DNA from: Lysobacterales bacterium
Lineage (GTDB): Bacteria > Pseudomonadota > Gammaproteobacteria > Xanthomonadales > SZUA-5
Assembly: GCA_022844165.1 (NCBI GenBank)
Contig: JALHMH010000003.1
Location: forward strand, 132,269 to 196,268
Length of the DNA: 64,000 nt
Reading direction: 5' to 3'
Shown here: positions 9,351-50,516 of the stretch, one piece after another
Layout: the number at the start of each line of letters is the position of its first letter
Position numbering within the stretch: position 1 is the stretch's first letter
Made by a program: the position numbers and the translations under genes
Notes under the pieces: model-generated
Databases searched by the model: none
Seen by the model: the letters and a program-made list of their open reading frames with translations, nothing else
Told to the model about the DNA's origin: nothing

Positions 9351-12062
9351 ATGAGCGAACGCCCAACCTTATCCTCTGTCACCTCAATCCAGCCGATGGA
9401 TCCACCATCGCGGATCGCGCCGGTCAGCGGCTCCAATTCTGGCGGTGGCGGGCCGTCGGCCTGGATCGGCCGTGAGATCGATGGCTACCGAATTGTCCGC
9501 GCTATCGGCGCGGGCGGCATGGGTGTGGTGTTTTTGGCCCAGCAGCAGCATCCAAAGCGTCATGTTGCGATCAAGACCTTGCATGCGGGCTTCCACCAGG
9601 CCGAGCTGCTGGCGCGTTTCCAGCAGGAGGCCGAAATTCTGGCGCGCTTTACGCACGTTGGTATTGCGCAAATCTATGCCAGCGGCTGTACCAATGAAGC
9701 GATGGGGAGCGTGCCCTACATCGTCATGGAATATGTCGAGGGCGTGCCGCTGCTGGAGGCCTGCGCTGCGCTGGATATGCGCGAACGGCTGAATTTGCTG
9801 CGGCGAGTCTGCGAGGCGGTCGAACATGCGCATATTCGCGGCGTTATCCATCGCGATCTGAAACCCGGCAACATCTTGGTGCAATCCGACGGCCAGCCGA
9901 AGGTGCTCGACTTCGGCGTCGCTCGCCTTTCCGGCAATGAAGAGCGTGGCGGTAGCGACCTGACCACCGCCGGCATGGTGATTGGCACGATCGCCTACAT
10001 GAGCCCCGAGCAAGCGATGGGCGAACCGGGCGCTGTGGATATCCGCACCGATGTGTATGCGCTCGGCATGATCGGCTATCGCATGCTGACCGGCGATTTG
10101 CCGTACGAGGTCACGGGACACAATATCGGCCACGCCCTGCAACAAATTTGCGACGTCGCGCCAACGCCGTTGTCCCGTTACGACCGTCGATACGCTGGCG
10201 ACCTGGAGACGATTTTTCAAAAAGCGCTGGCGAAAGAGAAAGACAACCGTTATCGCAACGCCGCTGAGCTCAGCGAAGACTTGCGACGCTACCTCGATGA
10301 TGAGGCGATTTTGGCGCGACGGGCCAGCGTATTCGCCGACGTACGGCGCTTTGCGCGTCGCAATCGAGCCTTGTTTGCGGCCGGGATCTTTGCGTTCGTG
10401 GCGTTGCTGTCGGCGGTCGCCATCAGCACGCGATTTGCGATCCGCGAACAGGCGCAACGCATCGAGGCCGATACCGTCGTGAGCTTCTTGCGCCGAATGC
10501 TGTCCAGTGCCAATCCGGTGTTTGCGCAAGGACGCGACGTCACGATCCGCGAGGCGATGGATGCTGCCGCGCCTGATCTGGAGTCGCAATTGGCGCAGGT
10601 GCCGGCCGCGCGCGGGCGGCTGCGCGCAACGTTGGCGGATACCTATCATGCCCTCGGCGATCTGCCGCGAGCGATCACCTTCTACGATGCAGCAGCAAGC
10701 GACTTCACGGCCGCTGGAATCGATGGCCCTGAGCATCGGCAAACGATCTTGGGCAAGGTCGAAGTCTTGCTCGACCGTGGCCAGGCGCTCAACGCCCAAA
10801 TCTTGCTTGATGCATTAGAACCTTTGCGCACCGTTCCAACCAGTAGCCTGGACGCCAGAACTGCGATTTTCCGGGCAAGAACGCGAGAGGATTTCGGCGA
10901 CATCGATGCCGCATTGGGCGAACTCGCGGCGTTGCGTAACGTTGATCTGTCGAAGCTCTCTTGCGAGGACTGTCGACCCGATTGGCGCGCAGCGCTCGAT
11001 GTCGAAGCGCGCATCATTTCGGCGTCGCTGCTTCGCCAGAATGAGCAGTTCGACGAAGCCTTGGATATCGCGCAGGCCGCATTTAGCCTCGCAAATGAAA
11101 CGCTCGGTCCATCTCATCCGATGGCGCTGAAAGCGGCCATCGAACTGGCGAACTCATTGGACGACAGTGGTCAGCGCGATCAAGCGCTGGCCGTTGCCGA
11201 AACCGCAGTTCAAGAACGTCGACGCCTGCTCGGCGCTACGCACTACCAGACATTGACAGCGCTCAACAACCTGGCGCAAATTCACGAGTCGGTTGGCGAT
11301 GGCGCGACGGCGAAGCGTCTACTGGTCGAAGCGCACGAGTTGGCCGAGGCGCAGCTGCAAGACCACGAACTGTGGGCACAGATCACGCATAACCTGGGCC
11401 GCATCGAATACCTGGCAGGAAACATCGACCGCGCGCAGGCGTTGTTGAACGACGCTTATCGTTGGCGACAAAACAAGCTCGGGTTAAGTCACCCGGACAC
11501 GCTGAACAGCGCCTTGGCTTTGAGCGTGGTGTACTCGACACGCAATGAGTACGACAAAGCACTGCCTCTGCGCGAGTCCGCGATTCGCGGGTACGAAGCG
11601 CGTTTTGGAACGGAACATCGGGACACGTTGGCGGCGCGATCCGAGTACGCAGCGCTGCTGCGCAATATGGGCAACTTCGACGCGGCGGACGCCGAGTTCA
11701 AATCTGTACTGAGCGCGACGGAACGACTTTTCAAGCCCGGCGACAGCGAACGAATGCGCGTCCTCTACCAGTATGCCGGCTCGCTGCAGCGCCAGGAGAA
11801 ATGGCGCGAGGCCGAGAGACTAAGTCGTCAGTTGATGGACGAAGCAGCGCTCACGGCCGATACCGACGCGCAGCACGCGTTGTTGGCGCCTCTACGCCAC
11901 GCTCGCTCGCTCATGGGCCTGCGACGCTACGACGAGGCTGAGTTTTTGCTGGAGAACCTGGAGAAACAGCTTGGCGCCGAGCATCAGGTGCAAATGCGCG
12001 AGATGACCAGCCAGACCCTGGCCGAATTGCGCGCCGCGCGCGCCGCGCGTGCCGCACAGTGA
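9351..12062 (+). CDS. Hanks-type Ser/Thr protein kinase with one TM segment and a long TPR region
   Basis: Kinase motifs: GAGGMGVV glycine loop, VAIK lysine, HRDLKPGNIL, DFGVARL, and the SPE motif within MSPEQA. TM segment ALFAAGIFAFVALLSAVAIS. About 550 aa of TPR_12-like repeats follow (..ALNNLAQIHESVGD.., ..THNLGRIEYLAGN..). Confidence 0.85.
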   Translation: MSERPTLSSVTSIQPMDPPSRIAPVSGSNSGGGGPSAWIGREIDGYRIVRAIGAGGMGVVFLAQQQHPKRHVAIKTLHAGFHQAELLARFQQEAEILARFTHVGIAQIYASGCTNEAMGSVPYIVMEYVEGVPLLEACAALDMRERLNLLRRVCEAVEHAHIRGVIHRDLKPGNILVQSDGQPKVLDFGVARLSGNEERGGSDLTTAGMVIGTIAYMSPEQAMGEPGAVDIRTDVYALGMIGYRMLTGDLPYEVTGHNIGHALQQICDVAPTPLSRYDRRYAGDLETIFQKALAKEKDNRYRNAAELSEDLRRYLDDEAILARRASVFADVRRFARRNRALFAAGIFAFVALLSAVAISTRFAIREQAQRIEADTVVSFLRRMLSSANPVFAQGRDVTIREAMDAAAPDLESQLAQVPAARGRLRATLADTYHALGDLPRAITFYDAAASDFTAAGIDGPEHRQTILGKVEVLLDRGQALNAQILLDALEPLRTVPTSSLDARTAIFRARTREDFGDIDAALGELAALRNVDLSKLSCEDCRPDWRAALDVEARIISASLLRQNEQFDEALDIAQAAFSLANETLGPSHPMALKAAIELANSLDDSGQRDQALAVAETAVQERRRLLGATHYQTLTALNNLAQIHESVGDGATAKRLLVEAHELAEAQLQDHELWAQITHNLGRIEYLAGNIDRAQALLNDAYRWRQNKLGLSHPDTLNSALALSVVYSTRNEYDKALPLRESAIRGYEARFGTEHRDTLAARSEYAALLRNMGNFDAADAEFKSVLSATERLFKPGDSERMRVLYQYAGSLQRQEKWREAERLSRQLMDEAALTADTDAQHALLAPLRHARSLMGLRRYDEAEFLLENLEKQLGAEHQVQMREMTSQTLAELRAARAARAAQ

Positions 12063-17087: not shown

Positions 17088-17437
17088 AGTGTGTTCTCTC
17101 AATTTGGGCGAGACCGTTGCCAACCAGGGATGTAACCGTTCAGGACAGCCACAACCGGCAAGAGGGTGACGTGAACTACGCAAATCGCAGGAGAAAACGA
17201 CACGGTGTTTTCGCTATTGGGCACGATGCCTTGAGCTGAACCTGGTGTGGTGTCGGTTGCCCTTGATGCGCCCGATCATTTCCCGCCCTTTGCCCCGAGT
17301 GCTGCGCTGCTCGTTGGCGCCCTCCGTCCGGTGCGTCGGCGCGGCCGCCGTGCCATTGGACATCGATGTCCGAAAATGGCGAGTGTGCTTCCTCCGATGG
17401 TGGCAGGCTATGCGCATCCCAACTCTGGAGATCGAAC

Positions 17438-40495: not shown

Positions 40496-41869
40496 ATGAA
40501 CATCTTGATCCTTGGCGCCGGCCAGGTCGGCACATCAGTCGCCGCCGCGTTGGCGCGCGAGTCCAACGACATCACGGTGGTCGATACCGACGCGGAGCGG
40601 CTGCGGGATCTGGCCGAAAAACTCGACTTGCGCGTCGTCCAGGGTTTCGCTGCGCACCCCAGCGTGCTGGCACGCGCTGGTGCGGATGATGCCGATGCGA
40701 TCATTGCTGTGACCTCGTCGGATGAGGTCAACATGATTGCCTGCGAAGTTGCGGCCACGTTGTACAAGACGCCGATGAAAATCGCCCGGGTGCGTGCGCT
40801 CGAATATCTCAAGCATCCTGAGTTGTTCGCGCGTGGGCATGTGTCGATCGACCATTTGATCAGCCCTAGTCAGCGTGTCTGCGATTACATCGAACGCCTG
40901 ATTCAATACCCTGGCGCGTTGCAAGTGCTCGATTTCGCCGACGGCCGCGCGCAACTGATCGCGCTGCGCGCCGATCAGGCCGGAGCGCTCGTCGGCCATC
41001 AAATCCGCGATCTGGCGATGCATTTGCCGGCCGGCAGCGCGGTGCGCATTGCGGCGATCTTTCGCGACAAACGTTCGGTACCGGTCGACGGCGACACGGT
41101 GATCGAACGCGGCGATGAGGTGTTCTTTCTCGCCGATCGCAAGAACATCCGCGCGATGATGGCGGAACTCACGCGTATCGAACGGCCGGCAAAACGCGTG
41201 ATGATCGCCGGCGGCGGCAATATTGGCCTGGATCTCGCACGGCAACTCGAATCGCGTTACAACGTCAAAATCGTCGAGCGCGGCCGCGACCGGGCGCGGA
41301 TCATCGCCGAGCAGTTGGAGAGCGCGATTGTGCTCACCGGCGATTGCGCCGATGAGGACTTGTTGCGCGAAGAGAACATCGATCAAACCGATGTGTTCTG
41401 TTCGCTGACCAACGACGATGAAGCGAATATCTTGTCCGCGATGCTGGCCAAGCGCCTTGGTGCGCGCCGCGTGATTTCCTTGATCAATCGGCCCGCATAC
41501 GCGGAGCTGGTCGAAAGCGGCATGGTCGACACCGCAGTCTCGCCGCAGCAAATCACGCTCGGCGCCTTGCTCTCGTATGTGCGCAAGGGCAATCTGGTGC
41601 GCGTGCACAGTCTGCGCGGCGGCGCTGCAGAAGCCTTCGAGGCAGTGGCTACCGGTTCGAGCGGGACCTCACGTCTGGTGGGAAAGAGCATCGAACAAAT
41701 TCCGTTGCCGTCAGGTGCGACGATTGCCGGCATCGTGCGCGGCGAACGCGTGCTCGCGGCGCATCACGACACCGTCATCGAAACCGATGACCACGTGATT
41801 TTGTTCCTCTCGGATAAGCGCGAGCTGCGGCGCGTCGAATTGCTGTTCCGGGCGGGAGCACTGACGTGA
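40496..41869 (+). CDS. trkA: Trk potassium uptake system NAD-binding protein TrkA
   Basis: MNILILGAGQVGTSVA Rossmann motif, duplicated RCK-N/RCK-C architecture (second IAGGGNIGLDLA). 457 aa. Confidence 0.92.
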   Translation: MNILILGAGQVGTSVAAALARESNDITVVDTDAERLRDLAEKLDLRVVQGFAAHPSVLARAGADDADAIIAVTSSDEVNMIACEVAATLYKTPMKIARVRALEYLKHPELFARGHVSIDHLISPSQRVCDYIERLIQYPGALQVLDFADGRAQLIALRADQAGALVGHQIRDLAMHLPAGSAVRIAAIFRDKRSVPVDGDTVIERGDEVFFLADRKNIRAMMAELTRIERPAKRVMIAGGGNIGLDLARQLESRYNVKIVERGRDRARIIAEQLESAIVLTGDCADEDLLREENIDQTDVFCSLTNDDEANILSAMLAKRLGARRVISLINRPAYAELVESGMVDTAVSPQQITLGALLSYVRKGNLVRVHSLRGGAAEAFEAVATGSSGTSRLVGKSIEQIPLPSGATIAGIVRGERVLAAHHDTVIETDDHVILFLSDKRELRRVELLFRAGALT

Positions 41870-42052
41870 GCGGGGGGATGTGGAGCGGGGCACGGGGCGC
41901 GGGGCACGGGGCACGGGGAGCGGGAAAGTTGTTGTCCGTTGCGAGTAGCCCTGGAGTTCAGCCCAAGAATTGCAGCGCCTGGCCCGCACCCCGTGCCCCG
42001 TGCCCCGTGCCCCGTGCCCCGTGCCGCGCACCCCCCCGTGCCCAGTGCCGCG
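41870..42052. repeat. Inverted arrays of GGGGCAC heptamers (intercistronic trkA-trkH)
   Basis: Five GGGG tracts with 3-nt spacers at 41887-41918. Five CCCC tracts at 41989-42020, plus degenerate GTGCCGC/GTGCCCA units to about 42050. The arms are reverse complements with one mismatch, separated by a 70-nt spacer. Confidence 0.9.
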
Positions 42053-42067
42053 CTCTCGAGGACTCCT

Positions 42068-43543
42068 ATGCCCGCTGAGCACGGCAGCAGCGTCGCGCGC
42101 TGGGCCACGGCGCTGCGCGCGATCGGAAATGTGCAACTGATCGTTGGCCTGACGCTGATTCCCTCGATACTGATTGCATGGTGGGATGGCGATAACTCGG
42201 CACTGCCGTTCATCGAGGCGGCGCTGGCGATGTTTGCTTTGGGCACGGCGCTGATCGTGTTTACCCGCGGCCGACGCGCAGAGCTGCGATTGCGCGATGG
42301 GTTCCTGGTGGTGTCGTCCGTTTGGATTATCTCGGCCTTATTGACACCCTTGCCGTTGATGCTCGGGCCGCCGCATCTGTCCTACACGGACGCGGTATTC
42401 GAAGTTGTGTCCGGGTTGACGACCACCGGCGCTACGGTCATCGTTGGTCTCGATCAATTGCCGCGCAGCGTATTGTTTTATCGCCAGTCGCTGCAGTTCC
42501 TGGGCGGCATGGGCATTGTGCTGCTGGCTGTGGCGATTTTGCCCACGCTGCGCATCGGCGGTTCGCAGTTGACCAAGGGCGAGACCAGTGGTCCCAATAA
42601 AGACGCCAAGCTGACGCCGCGCATCCAGAGCACAGCCGCGGCGCTGTGGTTGATCTACCTCGGATTGAACGCAACCTGCGCGCTCGCGTATTGGATGGGC
42701 GGAATGCAGCCTTTCGATGCGGTGACCTATGCGTTCTCGACCGTCGCGACAGGAGGATTCGGCAACTACGATGCCAACTTCGGCCAGTTCGACTCGCCTC
42801 TCCTGGAGAGCATCGCAATGGTCTTCATCGTGCTCGGCGGCGCGAATTTCGCGTTGCATTTTATCGCCTGGCAACGGGGTTCGGTCGCCGCCTATTTTCA
42901 GGACGTTGAGTTTCGCACGTACGTTCGCTGCCTGCTGTTTTTTTCGGCCATCGTCGGCACATCGCTATACACCACCGGTACCCACGAGGATTGGGCGACG
43001 AGTATCCGGCACGGCGCTTTCCATGTGGTTTCGGTGATGACAACCACCGGCTTCACGACCACCGGATTCGCCGGTTGGCCGGGCTACCTGGCGGCCTTGA
43101 TGATATTGATCGCGTTTTTCGGCGCCTGCGCCGGATCGACCGCTGGCGGGTTGAAAATTGTCCGGATCATGATGACAGCAAAACTGGCTTGGCGAGAAAT
43201 CCTGCGTGTCATTCACCCGCGTGGCCAGTTTGTTGTCAAAATCGGACGGCAAGTCGTGGGCGAACCGATTCTGGCGGCGGTGGCCGGTTTCATCACGGTG
43301 TACATTGGTAGTTACGTCGTGATCGCGTTGTGTATAGCGGCCACCGGGGCCGATCTGATCACTGCGTTTTCTGTCGCCGCGGCATCAATCACGAATTTGG
43401 GGCCGGCGCTTGGCGCTGCTGCCGCGACGGTGCGGGACCTGAACGATGTTGCTGTGTGGTTGTGTTCGGCAGCAATGCTGCTCGGGCGCCTTGAGGTGTT
43501 TACCCTGTTGGTGCTGCTGACGCCGGCATTTTGGCGCGAGTGA
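42068..43543 (+). CDS. trkH: Trk potassium uptake system membrane protein TrkH
   Basis: The internal ATG 42068 lies after the heptamer repeat. Polytopic, with TrkH signatures (SGLTTTGATV, VATGGFGNY, MTTTGFTTTGF). The upstream 43 codons of the ORF are repeat-encoded (PVPRAPCPVPRA). Confidence 0.9.
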   Translation: MPAEHGSSVARWATALRAIGNVQLIVGLTLIPSILIAWWDGDNSALPFIEAALAMFALGTALIVFTRGRRAELRLRDGFLVVSSVWIISALLTPLPLMLGPPHLSYTDAVFEVVSGLTTTGATVIVGLDQLPRSVLFYRQSLQFLGGMGIVLLAVAILPTLRIGGSQLTKGETSGPNKDAKLTPRIQSTAAALWLIYLGLNATCALAYWMGGMQPFDAVTYAFSTVATGGFGNYDANFGQFDSPLLESIAMVFIVLGGANFALHFIAWQRGSVAAYFQDVEFRTYVRCLLFFSAIVGTSLYTTGTHEDWATSIRHGAFHVVSVMTTTGFTTTGFAGWPGYLAALMILIAFFGACAGSTAGGLKIVRIMMTAKLAWREILRVIHPRGQFVVKIGRQVVGEPILAAVAGFITVYIGSYVVIALCIAATGADLITAFSVAAASITNLGPALGAAAATVRDLNDVAVWLCSAAMLLGRLEVFTLLVLLTPAFWRE

Positions 43544-43549
43544 GGCGGA

Positions 43550-44677
43550 CTAGCGCAGATCCGCCAGTTCCATCTCAATCAAGCCGCGATCCGGTGCATT
43601 GGGTGCCAGTTCCAGGTAACGCCGGAGCGCTTTCGCGGCGCTCGCAGAATCGCCCAGTTTGACCAGCACCAATCCCAGACCCCGCCACGAACGCGCAGGC
43701 GCGTTCGGATCACCCAGCGATGTTTCGTAGTGTCTTCTTGCCAGCGCCAAATCGCCTTCCCGTGCACGGCGGCGATACATCTCGCCAGTTGCATATTCGA
43801 TCTCCGCGGGCGCAAACGGCAGTCCTCGCAAGCGCGCTAATAACACCTGCGTTTGTCCGTAATGGCGACGCCCCACTTCGTCTTCCAGCCAATCCAGGCG
43901 ATGCGGCGCGATGACCGAATGGAATGCTTCCGCGCGCGTTTCGCCGCCGCGGGTGGCGGCCTTCTTCAGCCGTTCGGCGCGTTGTGCGCTCGGCGGATGT
44001 GTGGCAAAAATACCGGACGAAAGTTTCCGCTCGCGCGCCTGCTCTTCGCGCCAGATGTCGGCCCATGATTGCCCGGCGCGATGCGTGTCGTAACCTAACT
44101 CGGCGAGGCGCTTGAGGCCGTAGTCGTCTGCCGCGCGCTCCTGATCGCGCGAAAAGGCGAAGGCCGGCGCCAAGGCACCTAACCCGGCGACGGTCGCGAG
44201 CGCGGAGCCGCCGACAGCGCCGCCGACAACCTGCAGGGCAATCGACGCATTTGCCGAAGACTTCATCTGTCGCCATCGCGTCAGTGAATCGCGCGACAAC
44301 AAATGGCTCATTTCGTGGCCGAGCACGAACAGCAGTTGCGCTTCGTCCTCCATGCGCAACAGCAAACCCGTGAACACCACCATGGCGCCGTTAGGCGACA
44401 TCAGCGCGTTGAAGTACGGCTCGCGGATCAGATAGATGCGCACGTCTGCGCAGCGCTGTGCGTCGATCTTGCAAAGGAGGTCGCGAAGATAGGCATCCAA
44501 CACCGGGTCGCGCAGCCGCGCGGCACGTGCAGCGATGCGTTCTTCGAACGCGTCTGCCTGATGCAGCAGTCCTGCTTCATCGGCGTCAGGCGTGGCGTAT
44601 AGAGCGGTGGAACTCAGGTACAGCCACAACACCAGCAGGCGCGCAGCGCGAGCCGCGCTATTCGCGCTGTTGCTCAC
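43550..44677 (-). CDS. M48-family zinc metallopeptidase with C-terminal TPR-like region
   Basis: HEMSH zinc motif (VLGHEMSHLLSRD). Signal-like N-terminus. TPR-like tail (..ALARRHYETSL..AAKALRRYLELAP). The GTG start overlaps the upstream stop (GTGA). Confidence 0.8.
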   Translation of the reverse strand: MSNSANSAARAARLLVLWLYLSSTALYATPDADEAGLLHQADAFEERIAARAARLRDPVLDAYLRDLLCKIDAQRCADVRIYLIREPYFNALMSPNGAMVVFTGLLLRMEDEAQLLFVLGHEMSHLLSRDSLTRWRQMKSSANASIALQVVGGAVGGSALATVAGLGALAPAFAFSRDQERAADDYGLKRLAELGYDTHRAGQSWADIWREEQARERKLSSGIFATHPPSAQRAERLKKAATRGGETRAEAFHSVIAPHRLDWLEDEVGRRHYGQTQVLLARLRGLPFAPAEIEYATGEMYRRRAREGDLALARRHYETSLGDPNAPARSWRGLGLVLVKLGDSASAAKALRRYLELAPNAPDRGLIEMELADLR

Positions 44678-45363
44678 AGCGGCGCGCCAGCGAGCAGCAA
44701 CTCAATCGACTCCCGCGCTTTGTCCAACGCGCGCAGATCGCCGCGCTCGGAGGCGAGAACATTGAACCAGACGATCGCGCCGCTATCGAGATCGACCAGC
44801 GACGCAAAACCGACTTGCTGACCGAGCGATACGCCAACGCCCACCAGTGCGAGCGCCATCATCGCCTTGCGACCATCGGTTGCATACGAATCGCGCAAGT
44901 AAACGAAGAGGCCGTAGCGGGCGCTGGCATCGAGTGCTCGGGCGCCGCTCCCGAGCGTCCAATCGAAACCGGTCTTGTGCGCTAACTTGCCGGTGCCAAG
45001 GCCATGCAGCATCACGCTGTAGCCAACCATTTCATGCAGTAGCGTGAGCTGCCGCGCACGTTCTGGATCGCCAAGTGCCTGAAAGTTGTCGATCGTCCGC
45101 GCTTTGGCGCCGCGCTGCTTCAAGGCTTGCTCAAGCGCGGTCCGGACGTGAGCTTCCGCTGCCAGCGTCCAATCGGCGCGAACCTCCTGCAGCCCGGAAG
45201 CGAGCAAAGACGACAGTTCGACATCCGGCGGCAGAATCACAATCTCTGCACCGCGGCCCAGCTGGGCGTCTTCCGCCACGCCGCTGGCGCGCTCGTTGCG
45301 CGTCACCGCACAGGCGTTCAACAGCAGAGCGATCAACAAAAGGCGACAACGGATCCTGGTCAT
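44674..45363 (-). CDS. Hypothetical lipoprotein
   Basis: Lipobox [18 protein letters not shown]. 229 aa with no recognisable domain. The ATG overlaps the hisIE stop (ATGA). Confidence 0.55.
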   Translation of the reverse strand: MTRIRCRLLLIALLLNACAVTRNERASGVAEDAQLGRGAEIVILPPDVELSSLLASGLQEVRADWTLAAEAHVRTALEQALKQRGAKARTIDNFQALGDPERARQLTLLHEMVGYSVMLHGLGTGKLAHKTGFDWTLGSGARALDASARYGLFVYLRDSYATDGRKAMMALALVGVGVSLGQQVGFASLVDLDSGAIVWFNVLASERGDLRALDKARESIELLLAGAPL

Positions 45364-45962
45364 GCTCGGTGACGCTCACGAAGTACACCGATCACATCAT
45401 CCAGCGACAGGCCGCGTGCCTGCAACAGCACCAGTAGATGAAACAGAAGATCGGCGGATTCACCGAGCAGTTCCCGGTCCGACTGGGCGACGCCAGCGAG
45501 TGCGGTTTCGACCCCTTCTTCGCCGACCTTTTGCGCGATTTTATGCAGGCCACGTTCGAACAGTTTGGTGGTGTACGAGCCTTCTGGGCGCTGCTTGTCG
45601 CGTTCGGCCACCAGGCGCATCAGCGCGCCGAGAAACGCCAGTGGCGGACCGGGAAAGTCGCCGAAACACGTCGTCGTCCCGGTATGGCAGGTGGGCCCGT
45701 GTGGACGCGCATGGATTAGAATGGTGTCACCGTCGCAGTCCAGGTAAGCGTCGATCAACTCCAATACATTGCCGCTGGTTTCGCCCTTCGTCCAAAGCCG
45801 TTTCTTGCTGCGCGAGTAGAAGGTCACCTGCCTGGATTCGAGCGTCGCCGCGAGCGCCGCAGCGTTCATGTAGCCGAGCATCAACACTTGCGCGGTGCTG
45901 ATGTCCTGCACCACCGCTGGCACCAGACCTTTACTGAAATCGACTTGCTGAAGCTCAAGCAT
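45360..45962 (-). CDS. hisIE: Bifunctional phosphoribosyl-AMP cyclohydrolase/phosphoribosyl-ATP pyrophosphatase
   Basis: [31 protein letters not shown] (HisI part), then LF..L..RDK..PEGSYT..L..KI.QKVGEE (HisE part). Confidence 0.92.
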
Positions 45963-46752
45963 GCGCGGGCTCCGGTGGCCGAATGGCGTGGCCTCGATCG
46001 AGCAAGTACAACTTCAACGCCGGAATCTCCACCTCGCCCGAGTGGAACACGCTGGCGGCCAGTGCGCCATCGACATCGGCCAGGGCGAAGGCGTTGGCAA
46101 AATGTTCCGGTGCGCCAGCGCCACCGGAGGCGATTAACGGCACCTCGCAAATTGCTCGGACCGCCTTGAGTTGCTCCAGATCGTAGCCCCGCCGTTCACC
46201 ATCGACATTCATGCAGTTGAGGACAATTTCGCCGGCACCCAGTTCCTGCGCCTGACGCACCCAATCGAGGGTGCGAATTGACAGTTGTTGCGTCTTGTTG
46301 GGATCGCCAGTGTACCGGTTGACGCGCCACTCGCTGTCAATGCGTTTGCTGTCGATGCCGACCACCACGCACTGCGCGCCGAATTCGTCCGACAGTTCCC
46401 GGATCAATGCTGGTCGCTCCAGCGCCGGTGTGTTGACGCTGATTTTGTCGGCGCCGGCGAACAGGACTTCGCGCGCATCCGTGATGCTGCGGATCCCGCC
46501 GGCTACGCAAAATGGGATATCGATGGCGCGCGCCACGCGCTCGACCCAGGTCCGATCGACACTGCGACCTTCCGGGCTGGCAGTGATGTCGTAGAACACC
46601 AGCTCATCCGCGCCCGCATCGCGGTAGCGCATTGCCAGATCGAGGATGTCGCCCATCACCACGTGGTCGCGAAAACGCACGCCTTTGACAACTTTGCCGT
46701 CGCGCACGTCCAGGCACGGGATGAGGCGACGGGTGAGCTGGGTTGTAGTCAT
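45955..46752 (-). CDS. hisF: Imidazole glycerol phosphate synthase cyclase subunit
   Basis: [38 protein letters not shown] 46752 gives a homologue-like N-terminus. The longer ORF start at 46797 (ATGA overlap with hisA) is the alternative. Confidence 0.9.
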
Positions 46753-46793
46753 GGTGGATGGTCGTTGGTTGTTGGAGGGCGATATGGACGACG

Positions 46794-47525
46794 TCATTCG
46801 GCTTGATGCAGCGCATCGGGCACACCGAATCTCCCGTCCAACAGCGCCTTGCCGATCACCACCGCCGCTGCGCCCGCCGCACGTAGCGCGCGCAGATCAG
46901 CAAGCGCGTGCACACCGCCGGAGGCAACCAAGTGGGCGTTCGCAAAACGCGCCGCAAGACTGCGATACAGCGCTACATTCGGCCCGCCGAGCATGCCGTC
47001 GCGATCGATGTCGGTGACCAGGAAGTGCCTCGCGCCTTTGGCAAGCCATGCGGCCGTCGTCGATTCGAGATCGGCGGTTTCAAGCTCGGTCCAACCCGCG
47101 GTGGCGATCCGGAACACGCCGCCAGCATCGGCGCGCGCATCGAGCGCCAGCGTAAGGCGCTCGGCGCCGAACTCGTCAAACCATTGCGCGACCAGCTGCG
47201 GCTGTTTGACCGCCAGCGAACCGACGACAACGCGCTCGACACCCGCTTTAAGAAACGCATCGAGTTGCGCGCGTGAGCGCACGCCGCCGCCGGCCTGCAC
47301 GCGCAGACCGGTGGCCACCATGCGTTCGATCACCGCGAGGTTCTCGGTGCTGCCGGTCTTGGCGCCGTCGAGATCGACCACGTGCAACCACTGCGCGCCT
47401 TGATCGCGATACGTTCTCGCCAGTTCTACAGGATCGTTGGCATAGGTTTGCTGCTGCGCGAAGTCGCCCTGCAGCAAACGCACGACGCGCTGGGCGCGCA
47501 AGTCGATGGCCGGGATAATGATCAT
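46794..47525 (-). CDS. hisA: 1-(5-phosphoribosyl)-5-[(5-phosphoribosylamino)methylideneamino]imidazole-4-carboxamide isomerase
   Basis: [43 protein letters not shown] are canonical HisA blocks. Confidence 0.92.
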
Positions 47526-48121
47526 GACATCGCCAGAAAGTTGCGGATCAAACGGGCGCCGACGGCTGAAGAGCGCTCGGGGTGAAATTGCGCAGCCATG
47601 AAGTTGCCGCGGGCCACAATGGCGCAGAACGGCTGGCCGTGCTGGCAGGACGCCAGCGTCAACTCGCTGACCGGCGCGGCAAAGCTATGCACGAAATACG
47701 CGTACGAACGCTCGTCGAGACCGGCGATCAGCGGATGCTCGCGCAATATTTGCAGCGCATTCCAACCCATATGCGGCACGCGCGCCGCAGCGCTGGCTTC
47801 GAGGCGTCGGATCGTGCCATCGAACAATCCCAGGCAGCGCGTCTGGCCACCCTCGTCCGACGTTGAGAATAGCAACTGCATGCCCAGACAAACGCCGAGC
47901 ACCGGCTGCTTGAGCGTTGGCAGACGCGTCGACAAACCCAACGCATCCAACTCACGCATCGCCGCGGCAGCGGCGCCGACGCCCGGCAAAATTACCCGCG
48001 GCGCACGCGCAATCTCGTTCCAGTCGCGCGTCACCGTCACGTGCGCACCCTCGCGCTCGAGCGCGGCGCGCATTGAGCCGATGTTGGCAACGCCGGAGTC
48101 GATCAGGGCGACGGGCGTCAT
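47522..48121 (-). CDS. hisH: Imidazole glycerol phosphate synthase glutamine amidotransferase subunit
   Basis: The internal ATG 48121 gives MTPVALIDSGVANIGS. The catalytic block is GVCLGMQLLF, with FHPERS near the C-terminus. The upstream 34 codons of the ORF lie in the heptamer repeat. Confidence 0.9.
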   Translation of the reverse strand: MTPVALIDSGVANIGSMRAALEREGAHVTVTRDWNEIARAPRVILPGVGAAAAAMRELDALGLSTRLPTLKQPVLGVCLGMQLLFSTSDEGGQTRCLGLFDGTIRRLEASAAARVPHMGWNALQILREHPLIAGLDERSYAYFVHSFAAPVSELTLASCQHGQPFCAIVARGNFMAAQFHPERSSAVGARLIRNFLAMS

Positions 48122-48149
48122 GGCTGTTGCGCCGCGTTGTCGAGCAAGA

Positions 48150-48283
48150 GCGGGACACGGTACACGGGGCACGCAACCGCCCCCCCTGGCATTCGAATCA
48201 CATCCGTCGCAACCTCGGGCCATGCTCTGTGTGCCCGGTGCCGCGTGCCGCGTGCCGCGTGCCCCGTGCCCCGTGCCCCGCCT
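48150..48283. repeat. Inverted arrays of GGGGCAC-type heptamers (intercistronic hisB-hisH)
   Basis: Left arm GGGACAC GGTACAC GGGGCAC (48152-48172). Right arm is seven units, GTGCCCG GTGCCGC x3 GTGCCCC x3 (48231-48279). The spacer is about 55 nt. It uses the same repeat unit as the trkA-trkH element. Confidence 0.85.
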
Positions 48284-48305
48284 TTCTCGTCCGCCCCGCG
48301 CCGCA

Positions 48306-49367
48306 TCACAACACCCCCTTGGTACTCGGCACCGCGTCCCCGCTGCGCCGCGTCGCCACGCGCAGCGTACGCGCGAGCACCTTGAAGCAGGCCTCGACCA
48401 TGTGATGCGCGTTGTCGCCGCGAACGGTCAGATGCAGATTGGCGCCGAGCGTTTCGCACAGCGAGCGGAAAAAGTGCGGCACCAATTCGGTTGGCAGCTC
48501 ACCAACGCGCTCGCGCGGGAACGTGCCGTCGAACACAAAGTATGGACGTCCCGATAAATCGAGCGCTGCGCTGGCCAGGGTTTCGTCCATCGGCAGCGTG
48601 AACGCATAACGCTCGATACCACGTTTGTCGCCGAGCGCAGATTTGAGCGCCTGTCCCAACGCGAGCGCGCTGTCTTCGACCGTGTGGTGCTCGTCGATGT
48701 GTAAATCGCCCTTGCAGCTGAGCGCCAGTTTAAAGCCACCATGGCGCCCGATTTGCTCGAGCATATGGTCGAAAAACCCCAGGCCGGTCTGGACTTCCGG
48801 CAGTGCTTCGCGATCCAGATCGATCTCGACGCGAACGCGCGTTTCCTTGGTGTTGCGCTCAATCACTGCAACCCGCGGCGCATTCAGCAGGCGGTGCGCA
48901 ATTTCGGGCCAAGGCAATCCCTCCGTGCCGCAGCGTATGCCGGTCACGCCCATGTTCTTTGCGAATTCCAGATCCGTCAGGCGATCGCCCACCATCGCGC
49001 TGCATTTCCGATCCCAGCCAGGATCGGCCAGATAGTCGAGCATCATCCCGACCTTGGGTTTGCGCGTATCAGAGGGTTGATGCGCAAAATGCCGATCGAT
49101 GCGTTCGCTGGCGAAGGTGATCCCTTGCGAGCGCAGTACATCAAGCATCAGGTTGTGCGCGGGCCAAAAAGTGTCTTCGGGAAAGCTCTCGGTACCAAGA
49201 CCGTCCTGATTGCTCACGAGCACCAGCTCATACCCGGCATCGACGATGCGCTTGAGCGCCGGGATGACCTGTGGCAGAAACTTCAGCTTCTCGATGGCGT
49301 CGATCTGCTGATCCGGTGGTTCTTCGATCAGACAACCGTCGCGGTCGATGAAAAGGATTTTGCGCAT
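48306..49367 (-). CDS. hisB: Bifunctional histidinol-phosphatase/imidazoleglycerol-phosphate dehydratase
   Basis: N-terminal HAD motif [15 protein letters not shown]-terminal IGPD blocks GFFDHML..HGGF and [19 protein letters not shown]. Confidence 0.92.
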
Positions 49368-49451
49368 GGATTTCTCTTGCCTCTTTCTCCGTCGCTATCG
49401 CGCGACGCCTTTGTCTGTTCCCGCAAGCCTCCAGCGCCGGCGGCAACGGCC

Positions 49452-50516
49452 TCACGCCAGCACGCGACCCACTGCTTCCAGAAACTGATCGTTTTCGACA
49501 GGCGATCCGATCGTCACCCGCAAGCCGCCAGCGAGCTTCAAATAGTGCGATACGTCGCGGATCAGTACGCCCTGATCGGCCAGTTGATTCCAGATCGACC
49601 TCGCGTCATCCACCTGGAATGCCAGGAAGTTGGCGCGACTGGGCCATACGCGGCGTATGTCGCGTATGCCCGTCAGTGCTCCGTAGACGCGCTCGCGTTC
49701 CTGCACGGTTGCAGCAATGCGCGCCTGATGCTCGTCGCGAACCGCGAGCGCCTTCAGTGCCGCATCGACGCAGGGCGTCGGCAGTGGATAAGGCGCCATG
49801 ATCCGGCGCACGAGGCCAATGATCTCCTCGTGTGCGATCAGCGTACCCAGGCGCGCGCCCGCTAAAGCGTATGCCTTCGACATCGTGCGCAGCACGCAGA
49901 CGTGCGGATAGCGATCGATCAGGCCCACGGCGCTCTCGCTTCCGGCGTATTCCAGATAGGCTTCGTCGACCACCACGAGCGCGCGACCGGCCAGCGCGGC
50001 TGCCAATCGTTCGATATCCGCAAGCGGCACCCGCGAACCCGTCGGATTGTTCGGGGTGCACACGTAAACCAGCTTCACCGGCGCTGCGAGCGCTGCGGTG
50101 ATCAGTCGGTCGACATTGAGGCGAAAGTCGGTATCCGCTGTCAGCGGCTCGCTGATGACGCTGGCGCCTTGCACGCCGGCTGCCACTGCGTACATCCCGA
50201 AGGTGGGCGGCGAGATCAGCACCGCGTCTTGCCCGGCGCGACAGAAGGCGCGCGTCAACAAATCGATGGCCTCATCGCTGCCGCGGCCGACGAACACGCA
50301 TTCGGGGCGGGTGCCGTATAGCGCTGCCAGTGTATCCATCAAGGAGCGCGGTTGCGGATCGGGATAGCGATTCAAGCCGAGCAGATCGCCGACAAAAGGC
50401 AACGTTGGCGACTCGTTGGCGTTCAACATCACACTCGCCCGGCCCGCCTCCAGGCGCGCCGAGCTGTAGGCTTTCAGCGTCAGCAGCTCGGGCCGTGCGA
50501 GCGCCAATACGCTCAC
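49452..50516 (-). CDS. hisC: Histidinol-phosphate aminotransferase
   Basis: The GTG at 50516 overlaps the hisD stop (GTGA) and gives [21 protein letters not shown]. Also LNANESP, the PLP lysine context [12 protein letters not shown], and VCTPNNPTG. The 617-aa ORF upstream part is out-of-frame read-through across hisD. Confidence 0.9.

Follow-up and report, generated by a model that had tools for sequence, protein, structure and literature searches.

Inverted arrays of a 7-nt unit fill the hisB-hisH junction of an uncultured Lysobacterales bacterium

The his operon of an uncultured Lysobacterales bacterium harbors, between hisB and hisH, a palindromic element which is built from inverted arrays of a 7-nt unit. 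It lies in a stretch of 64,000 nucleotides (contig JALHMH010000003.1 of the assembly GCA_022844165.1, positions 132,269 to 196,268), hereafter called the window, and coordinates without a label are counted from the first letter of this stretch. The element (element 2; 48122-48305, minus strand) is 184 nt long and occupies the whole hisB-hisH gap. A further inverted array pair (element 1; 41870-42067, plus strand, 198 nt) occupies the gap between trkA and trkH.

The gene hisB (48306-49367, minus strand) codes for the bifunctional histidinol-phosphatase/imidazoleglycerol-phosphate dehydratase and ends with the TGA stop at 48306-48308. Its open reading frame (ORF) matches the NCBIfam model NF003937 with 527 bits against a cut-off of 443, and the representative of its identical cluster carries Pfam PF00475 and PF13242. 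The gene hisH (47522-48121, minus strand; TIGR01855, 222 bits against a cut-off of 105) begins with the ATG at 48119-48121. A longer hisH ORF from ATG 48223, in which the short arm of the element would be coding, was rejected since neither the HisH model nor the relatives align upstream of ATG 48121; the TIGR01855 alignment begins at residue 4, and the N-terminus MTPVALIDSG is the same as in the relatives. Hence, the gap measures 184 nt, as in the original prediction, which had placed the hisB stop at 48306 and the hisH start at 48121. No Shine-Dalgarno sequence is seen upstream of hisH (GCGCAACAGCC AUG). The operon had also been described as otherwise overlapping, which is not fully the case since hisC and hisB are 84 nt apart.

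In the sense of the mRNA, the element opens with an outer stem extension on the hisB side (48280-48314, minus strand), which includes the last codons and the stop of hisB and whose GAGAAAGGC abuts the G-rich arm. The long arm of seven units (48231-48279, minus strand) begins 26 nt past the hisB stop, where about 25 nt had been estimated. This arm is 5' and G-rich, and it reads (GGGGCAC)3 (GCGGCAC)3 CGGGCAC in the mRNA and GTGCCCG (48231-48237), GTGCCGC three times (48238-48258), and GTGCCCC three times (48259-48279) on the plus strand. The spacer or loop region (48173-48230, minus strand), which had been put at about 55 nt, is present and is 58 nt long. The short arm (48152-48172, minus strand) is 3' and C-rich and consists of three degenerate units, GUGCCCC GUGUACC GUGUCCC in the mRNA and GGGACAC (48152-48158), GGTACAC (48159-48165), and GGGGCAC (48166-48172) on the plus strand; the units of both arms had been read correctly in the earlier description. 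From the end of the short arm to the hisH AUG there are 30 nt, and the outer stem extension on the hisH side (48122-48151, minus strand), which ends in GAGCAAGAGC beside the arm, pairs with 48280-48314 in the predicted fold. Tandem Repeats Finder (TRF) reports 48231-48280 with period 7 and 7.1 copies, and 48151-48173 with period 7 and 3.3 copies. The complementarity from arm to arm is 88% over 25 nt.

Element 1 has a G-rich arm (approximately 41887-41921), a spacer (approximately 41922-41985), and a C-rich arm (approximately 41986-42051), all on the plus strand. It is preceded by trkA (40496-41869, plus strand; NF007032, 660 bits) and followed by trkH (42068-43543, plus strand; TIGR00933 and NF008020 matches), which has its own GAGGA Shine-Dalgarno sequence outside the element 1 hairpin. 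Outside these two loci, the 64 kb contain no large inverted repeats. When at most two mismatches are allowed, the 14-mer GTGCCCCGTGCCCC has 17 matches in the window, all of which fall in the hisB-hisH and trkA-trkH loci, and shuffled sequences give a mean of 1.05 and a maximum of 3. The sequence of element 2 is not an assembly artefact because identical contigs come from two studies: a 450-nt contig of the source drinking-water metagenome covers 47970-48419, and a 151-nt contig of a wetland metagenome from another study covers 48191-48341, both with zero differences. Element 2 is a real, inserted repeat of 7-base units with a predicted hairpin. The unit count of element 1 is without independent confirmation because the 31-mer unitigs break at its arrays (41863-42022). 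In the source run, the collapsed (GTGCCCC)n unitig reaches a depth of 41, compared with 5 in its flanks, and a contig of similar depth carries another pair.

The two copies of the window do not share their inner sequence. In Smith-Waterman alignments of the two spacers, 261 of 500 shuffles in the forward and 34 of 500 in the reverse orientation score equally well, in line with the original prediction, which had found no spacer homology apart from a shared GTTGCGA heptamer. This heptamer is at about chance level (approximately 0.4 expected by our estimate). BLAST of the window spacers and flanks against all fetched loci returned only the self-match. Similarly, an E-value search of 41000-49500 against Rfam gave nothing above threshold, and the sub-threshold matches of element 1 to miRNA precursors reflect a generic hairpin.

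The status of the element as an insertion is evident from the relatives. Eighty HisB relatives were fetched, and hisH adjoins hisB in 77 of them. In 71 of these 77 Xanthomonadales-type relatives the hisB-hisH gap is -10 to +20 nt, and the largest gap is 131 nt. For example, the loci L201, L207, and L212 (L-numbers are labels of loci fetched from relatives and other genomes), with 75-78% HisB identity, have kept a GTGA stop/start overlap of hisB and hisH. One relative with the GTGA overlap is the metagenome-assembled genome (MAG) JALHRS, other parts of which abound in GGGGCAC arrays. Likewise, the trkA-trkH gap of 74 relatives is approximately -43 to +128 nt (at most 52 nt in 70 and about -43 to +64 nt in 71 of the 74), values which are approximate because they were extrapolated from the ends of tblastn alignments. 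In relatives, the junctions which the two window copies occupy are short or overlap, and the hisB-hisH gap is, as judged from this comparison, a derived, lineage-specific, non-coding palindromic insertion. No target-site duplication is clear by eye at the window copies, with only ATG/TGA-level repetition at the hisB-hisH junction; at L414, TGAGC stands on both sides of the insert.

The same junction holds different array pairs in the closest relatives. The 90% cluster of the window HisB contains two other lineages, and both have an array pair at hisB-hisH. The gap is 184 nt in the window, with seven and three units of (GGGGCAC) type; 283 nt in L414-L418, with (GGGGCAG/GGGGCGG)3.4 mirrored by the C-rich arm; and 241 nt in L420 (MAG JALHMG), with (GAGGGCAC)4 and (GTGCCCTC)4. 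Between L414 and L420, hisB is 96% identical (89% at third codon positions) and hisH 94%, and from the hisB TGA to the hisH ATG there is no alignable sequence. The window hisB is 84% identical to both, and the hisB-hisH spacers of the three cannot be aligned with one another. In a more distant relative (L205:1066-1210, 79% HisB identity; also L206), the junction carries a GTAG-type repetitive extragenic palindromic (REP) pair (GTAGCCCGGATCAGCGCGCAGCGCGGATCCGGG ... CCCGGATGCGCGGCC...ATCCGGGCTAC). The hisB-hisH insert thus changes very fast from one close relative to another, and the swap of a whole spacer between 96%-identical relatives points to insertion, excision, or conversion. At each of the three sites, the same unit variant is found in both arms. 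The arms therefore co-vary, which suggests either copying between the arms or selection for their pairing.

The architecture recurs in many genomes, which supports the original reading of the repeat as a dispersed element rather than a local accident; the inverted GGGGCAC arrangement is found on many contigs of related uncultured Lysobacterales MAGs, and the close relatives carry other array versions at hisB-hisH. When one genome of each species was scanned for three perfect GGGGCAC units, the triple unit was seen in many taxa, and its presence on numerous contigs of a single genome was confined to uncultured Lysobacterales and Rhodanobacteraceae MAGs. The 37 Lysobacterales loci with GGGGCAC hold 51 arrays of at least three units and 18 distinct inverted pairs, all 18 of which have the G-rich arm 5' and the C-rich arm 3'. 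These pairs occupy short gaps between genes, at a distance of 3-30 nt from the gene ends; the genes are mostly co-directional and in some cases convergent or divergent. The 83 loci of other taxa hold 106 arrays of at least three GGGGCAC units, of which 84 are solitary, and four pairs, two of them G-first and two C-first. A second unit family shows the same polarity, since the G-rich arm is 5' in 17 of 17 inverted pairs at 33 Xanthomonadales GGGAATC loci, with spacers of 32-317 nt. A purine motif, A-R-R-(R)-G-C, stands at the inner junctions of both families (19 of 38 for GGGGCAC and 16 of 34 for GGGAATC) and is absent from the outer flanks (0 of 38 and 0 of 34), the rate in random 12-mers being approximately 3%; in most GGGGCAC copies it takes the form of GGGAAAGGC at one junction and GCCTTTCCC at the opposite one. 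The motif, inner in most family members, stands at L420 (9100-9115, 9259-9272; GAGAAACAAGAGC) on the outer 5' side of the G-rich arms, as it does in element 2. Other units occur in the same arrangement among the relatives, namely GGGGACC (L147, hisD-hisC), GGGGCAG, the octamer GAGGGCAC, and the 9-mer GCAAAGGAC.

Element 2 is predicted to fold in the his mRNA into one long imperfect hairpin which fills the gap (-123.6 kcal/mol, z = -6.4). The corresponding inserts of the relatives are also predicted to be stable, with -145.7 kcal/mol (z = -12.4) for L420 and -143.2 kcal/mol (z = -3.0) for L414, and element 1 gives -146.9 kcal/mol (z = -8.1). In the predicted basal helix of element 2, the last codons and the stop of hisB are paired with the region of the hisH AUG, whose three bases have unpaired probabilities of 0.05, 0.05, and 0.02 (A, U, G). 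When the hisB stop region is kept single-stranded, as it would be beneath a terminating ribosome, these probabilities rise to 0.89, 0.65, and 0.09. Consensus scans found no sigma-70 promoter-like and no terminator-like site in 48122-48305 or 41870-42067, the sole terminator-scan match in the region being at 48012-47996, inside hisH. Hence, element 2 is probably transcribed within the his mRNA.

It appears somewhat probable that the hisB-hisH insert is a structural repeat, selfish or near-neutral, which evolves fast and would act on the mRNA in a REP-like manner. According to this proposal, the inverted arrays, whose G-rich arm is 5' on either strand, would lengthen and shorten by slippage, as suggested by Xanthomonas, in which heptamer loci including GGGAATC behave as strain-variable variable-number tandem repeats (VNTRs) with single-unit steps (PMC6459536). 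In Xanthomonas vasicola, for example, 12 of 19 VNTR loci are built of 7-nt units, and GGGAATC is among these (PMC6459536). The asymmetry of seven against three units in element 2 plausibly fits growth or decay by slippage, and the arms may stay complementary through hairpin-templated copying or through selection for pairing. The insert would have supplanted the ancestral GTGA stop/start coupling with a coupling bridged by structure, as we infer from the fold. The base of the transcribed hairpin would place the hisB stop beside the hisH AUG, and the hisH start would remain masked as long as the basal helix is not opened by a ribosome that terminates on hisB. The hairpin could also be a barrier to 3'-to-5' mRNA decay, favoring hisGDCB over hisHAFI.

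Several observations weigh against this proposal. The replacement of the spacer between 96%-identical relatives points to more than slippage and decay in place, by which alone it would be hard to explain. No unit-number polymorphism is seen, as the contigs of two studies have the identical seven-unit array and the five assemblies of the L414 population differ by one single nucleotide polymorphism. A gapped pattern allowing 4-8 units had no match in Joint Genome Institute (JGI) metagenome contigs, which are consensus contigs and cannot reveal minority length variants. In element 2, the purine motif (GAGAAAGGC, GAGCAAGAGC) stands outside each G-rich arm, on its 5' side. Moreover, the unit of the window is GGGGCAC/GCGGCAC (GGGGCAG and GAGGGCAC in the relatives) and not GGGNATC, and neither a function nor a regulatory role was found for the Xanthomonas heptamers (PMC4692102).

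The Xanthomonas heptamers are nevertheless the nearest known likeness. Rehm et al. (2015) reported (GGGAATC)n at 186 and 183 loci of two Xanthomonas genomes, where 70 and 75 cases form convergent inverted pairs able to form stem-loops (PMC4692102). Of these arrays 89-93% are intergenic, mostly between co-directional ORFs; those on the coding strand follow a stop, and those on the non-coding strand precede a start, by no more than 50 nt (PMC4692102). They are mostly transcribed, vary in unit number between species, and have no link to mobile elements, and both they and the Nostoc (GGGGAYT)n arrays, which are the classical cyanobacterial short tandemly repeated repetitive (STRR) sequences, form quadruplexes in vitro (PMC4692102). 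Element 2 resembles them in its tandem G-rich units of period 7, its intergenic place between co-directional ORFs, its inverted pairing, and its strand placement, with the G-rich arm 26 nt after the hisB stop and the other arm 30 nt before the hisH ATG; the G-first polarity and the purine junction motif are likewise found in both unit families. The architecture is that of the Xanthomonas (GGGAATC)n pairs, and only the unit differs. As the published family is defined by GGGNATC, the hisB-hisH element is not classed as a member. It differs further in its host, an uncultured Lysobacterales lineage from water systems, in having no canonical G-quadruplex (G4) motif, and in having the purine motif outside the arms. 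About 180 copies per Xanthomonas genome compare with two in the 64-kb window, and related MAGs have the unit on many contigs. The 14-mers GGGGCACGGGGCAC and GTGCCCCGTGCCCC (doubled GGGGCAC unit) have no occurrence in the literature searched.

Intercistronic REP sequences have reportedly been described by Higgins in 1982 and Newbury in 1987 in the Salmonella hisJ-hisQ and E. coli malE-malF operons. REP doublets which form hairpins, the REPINs, are tied to RAYT transposases (Bertels and Rainey, 2011; PMC3116915). Element 2 is like them an extragenic inverted doublet with a spacer, between the cistrons of an operon and with a hairpin predicted in single-stranded DNA or mRNA, and a GTAG-type REP pair fills the same junction in L205. 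By analogy, a stable intercistronic hairpin would be expected to shield the upstream mRNA. Unlike in REPINs, the arms are arrays of a 7-nt unit and not a single conserved palindrome of 20-40 nt, and the copies are not near-identical. Contingency loci of simple sequence repeats (SSRs) and VNTRs are comparable in their short tandem units, which are expected to change by single-unit slippage. Unlike these, element 2 lies in the junction of a housekeeping operon and not in the promoter or frame of a surface gene, it shows no length polymorphism, and its 7-nt unit cannot switch a frame because it is outside an ORF.

A possible alternative, though on the unlikely side, is that the element is a non-autonomous transposable element, akin to a REPIN or a MITE (miniature inverted-repeat transposable element) and brought in by a transposase, with the heptamer arrays as its terminal inverted repeats and any effect on his incidental. 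MITEs are likewise small, non-coding, and intergenic with inverted ends, and MITE-like behavior exists in the clade because related MAGs hold a multi-copy element. This has a 49-nt core (GGGGACCCACGTCGCGGCACGGTCGGACCATGCGTCGTGGTTGGAAACC; 91-100% identity) between (GGGGCAG)n and (CTGCCCC)n, followed by a T-run and a conserved tail (TCAATGGGTTAGCGCATGCGTGG), and it is present in three copies within 21 kb of L210/L211 (L210:14140-14410 and 17178-17262, the same in L211) and in one copy in L213 (14121-14210). The copies of JALHRS also have a longer conserved inner sequence in common. The insertion of both window copies into junctions which normally abut, the strict polarity of the arms (35:0) as expected of a defined terminal inverted repeat, the swap of the whole spacer in the 96%-identical relatives, the array-type sequence in frame inside hisH of L205 and L201 described below, and the TGAGC on both sides at L414 speak for it too. 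On the other hand, the window copies have no common internal sequence and are unrelated to every fetched locus, they show no clear target-site duplication, and the length and unit of their ends differ from copy to copy. No transposase, RAYT included, was seen, in an analysis which made no search aimed at transposases, and Rehm et al. found no mobile-element link (PMC4692102).

It is quite unlikely that the paired inverted arrays form a distinct self-renewing class of palindromes in Xanthomonadales and apparently Gemmatimonadaceae, with units of 7-9 nt, strict G-first order, and the purine junction motif, and that a dedicated mechanism writes, mirrors, and replaces the arrays. Candidates for this mechanism are a transposase or a copying process which is templated by the hairpin and coupled to slippage. 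It would account for a hisB-hisH spacer that differs as a whole, unit included (GGGGCAG against GAGGGCAC), between flanks of 94-96% identity. The G-first polarity might be kept because Rho would be loaded, with polarity inside operons as the result, if the C-rich arm were transcribed first.

An improbable alternative is a regulatory switch between G-quadruplex and hairpin, in which the 5' G-rich arm would either fold into a quadruplex or pair with the C-rich arm and would thereby expose or hide a C-rich Rho-loading site or the hisH start and so tune the downstream his genes. It draws on the quadruplexes formed in vitro by the Xanthomonas and Nostoc heptamers, on the E. coli motifs reported to form both hairpins and quadruplexes (PMC5100583), on the canonical G4 motifs that a regular-expression search found on both strands of element 1, and on the G-first polarity (35:0), which, we infer, lets the C-rich arm pair once it is made. 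Element 2, in contrast, has no canonical G4 (loops of up to 7 nt) on either strand, and with loops of up to 15 nt it has one candidate, on the mRNA strand, with a 14-nt loop. It is therefore unlikely that a quadruplex plays an essential part there, and the G-quadruplex was rejected as its main feature. The predicted hairpin is also far more stable, and Rehm et al. found no regulatory role (PMC4692102).

It is very improbable that the element is an intrinsic terminator, an attenuator, or an internal promoter which splits the operon into hisGDCB and hisHAFI. A very stable GC-rich hairpin does stand directly after hisB, and the inner junction of many family members, GCCTTTCCC, amounts to a short T-run after the inner stem. 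However, neither window element has a T/U tract after the stem on the sense strand, for which the intrinsic terminator was rejected, and the scans gave neither a terminator nor a sigma-70 promoter. Since hisH lacks both its own Shine-Dalgarno sequence and its own promoter, a full stop at element 2 would cut off hisHAFI. Finally, an origin in chance low complexity of GC-rich sequence, in a purely local accident of slippage, or in faulty assembly has next to no probability and is refuted for element 2, in spite of the 61% G+C of the genome and the unitigs breaking at element 1, by the excess of matches (17 against 1.05), the identical contigs of two studies, and the recurrence of architecture, polarity, and junction motif across many genomes.

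The architecture was described in 2015, and heptamer microsatellites, which are abundant in both Xanthomonadales and cyanobacteria, serve in strain typing. Several aspects are new here. These include GGGGCAC as a unit family of an uncultured lineage, a strict G-first polarity and a junction motif that both unit families have in common, the co-variation of the arms at the level of the unit, and the exchange of a complete intercistronic spacer among near-identical relatives. The junction amounts to a natural experiment, in which at least four distinct palindromic inserts have come to occupy, within one clade, what was ancestrally a stop/start overlap. As two genomes with approximately 95% identity in the flanking genes carry unrelated inserts, the turnover becomes testable in terms of transposition, conversion, or templated slippage. 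The questions thereby opened are what keeps the arms complementary and how a hairpin of about -124 kcal/mol affects translational coupling and mRNA decay in an essential biosynthetic operon. In practical terms, such arrays break short-read assemblies, and gene callers run ORFs through them.

Further arrays and palindromes were observed in and around the his operons of other genomes. In L147 (1700-1850), a different Xanthomonadales-like MAG, the hisD-hisC junction carries (GGGGACC)5 GGGAAAGC ... (GGTCCCC)4 with the same junction motif. The hisC-hisB gap of L210/L211 is 379 nt and holds inverted 9-mer arrays, (GCAAAGGAC)2.8 and (GTCCTTTGC)2.8 (9740-9870); they are adjoined by a REP pair (GTGGGAGCGGCTTCAGCCGCGA...) which is found too in L207, L212, and L213. 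A nested palindrome at L071 (6100-6520) has (TTGGTTG)n/(CAACCAA)n outermost, then (GGGGCAC)6/(GTGCCCC)9, and innermost a REP pair (GTAGGTCCAGACTTGTCTGGACGC), and this REP recurs in the spacers of L016, L060, and L113. Gemmatimonadaceae MAGs, which belong to a different phylum, have G-first inverted pairs with GGGGCAT or GGGAATC units (L105, L220, L228, L240, L287). The cyanobacterial arrays are mostly solitary. Solitary arrays also stand just upstream of his genes, such as (CCGACAA)4 before hisIE (L201:13356-13385) and (CAACCAA)7 before hisG (L207:6459-6509), and they are identical across 3-4 assemblies.

Array-type sequence is seen in frame within hisH as well (L205:1645-1677 and L201:11434-11457). 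HisH measures 270 aa in L205, 250 aa in L201, and 199 aa in the window, and the extra 50-60 aa or so lie at two different positions. Either the elements can enter coding sequence or these genes are damaged. The his operon also appears to be split differently among close lineages. In L414 (9942-11384) and L420 (9900-12414), whose hisB is 84% identical to that of the window, an endonuclease III gene follows hisA, and the window has hisF and hisIE at 45360-47525.

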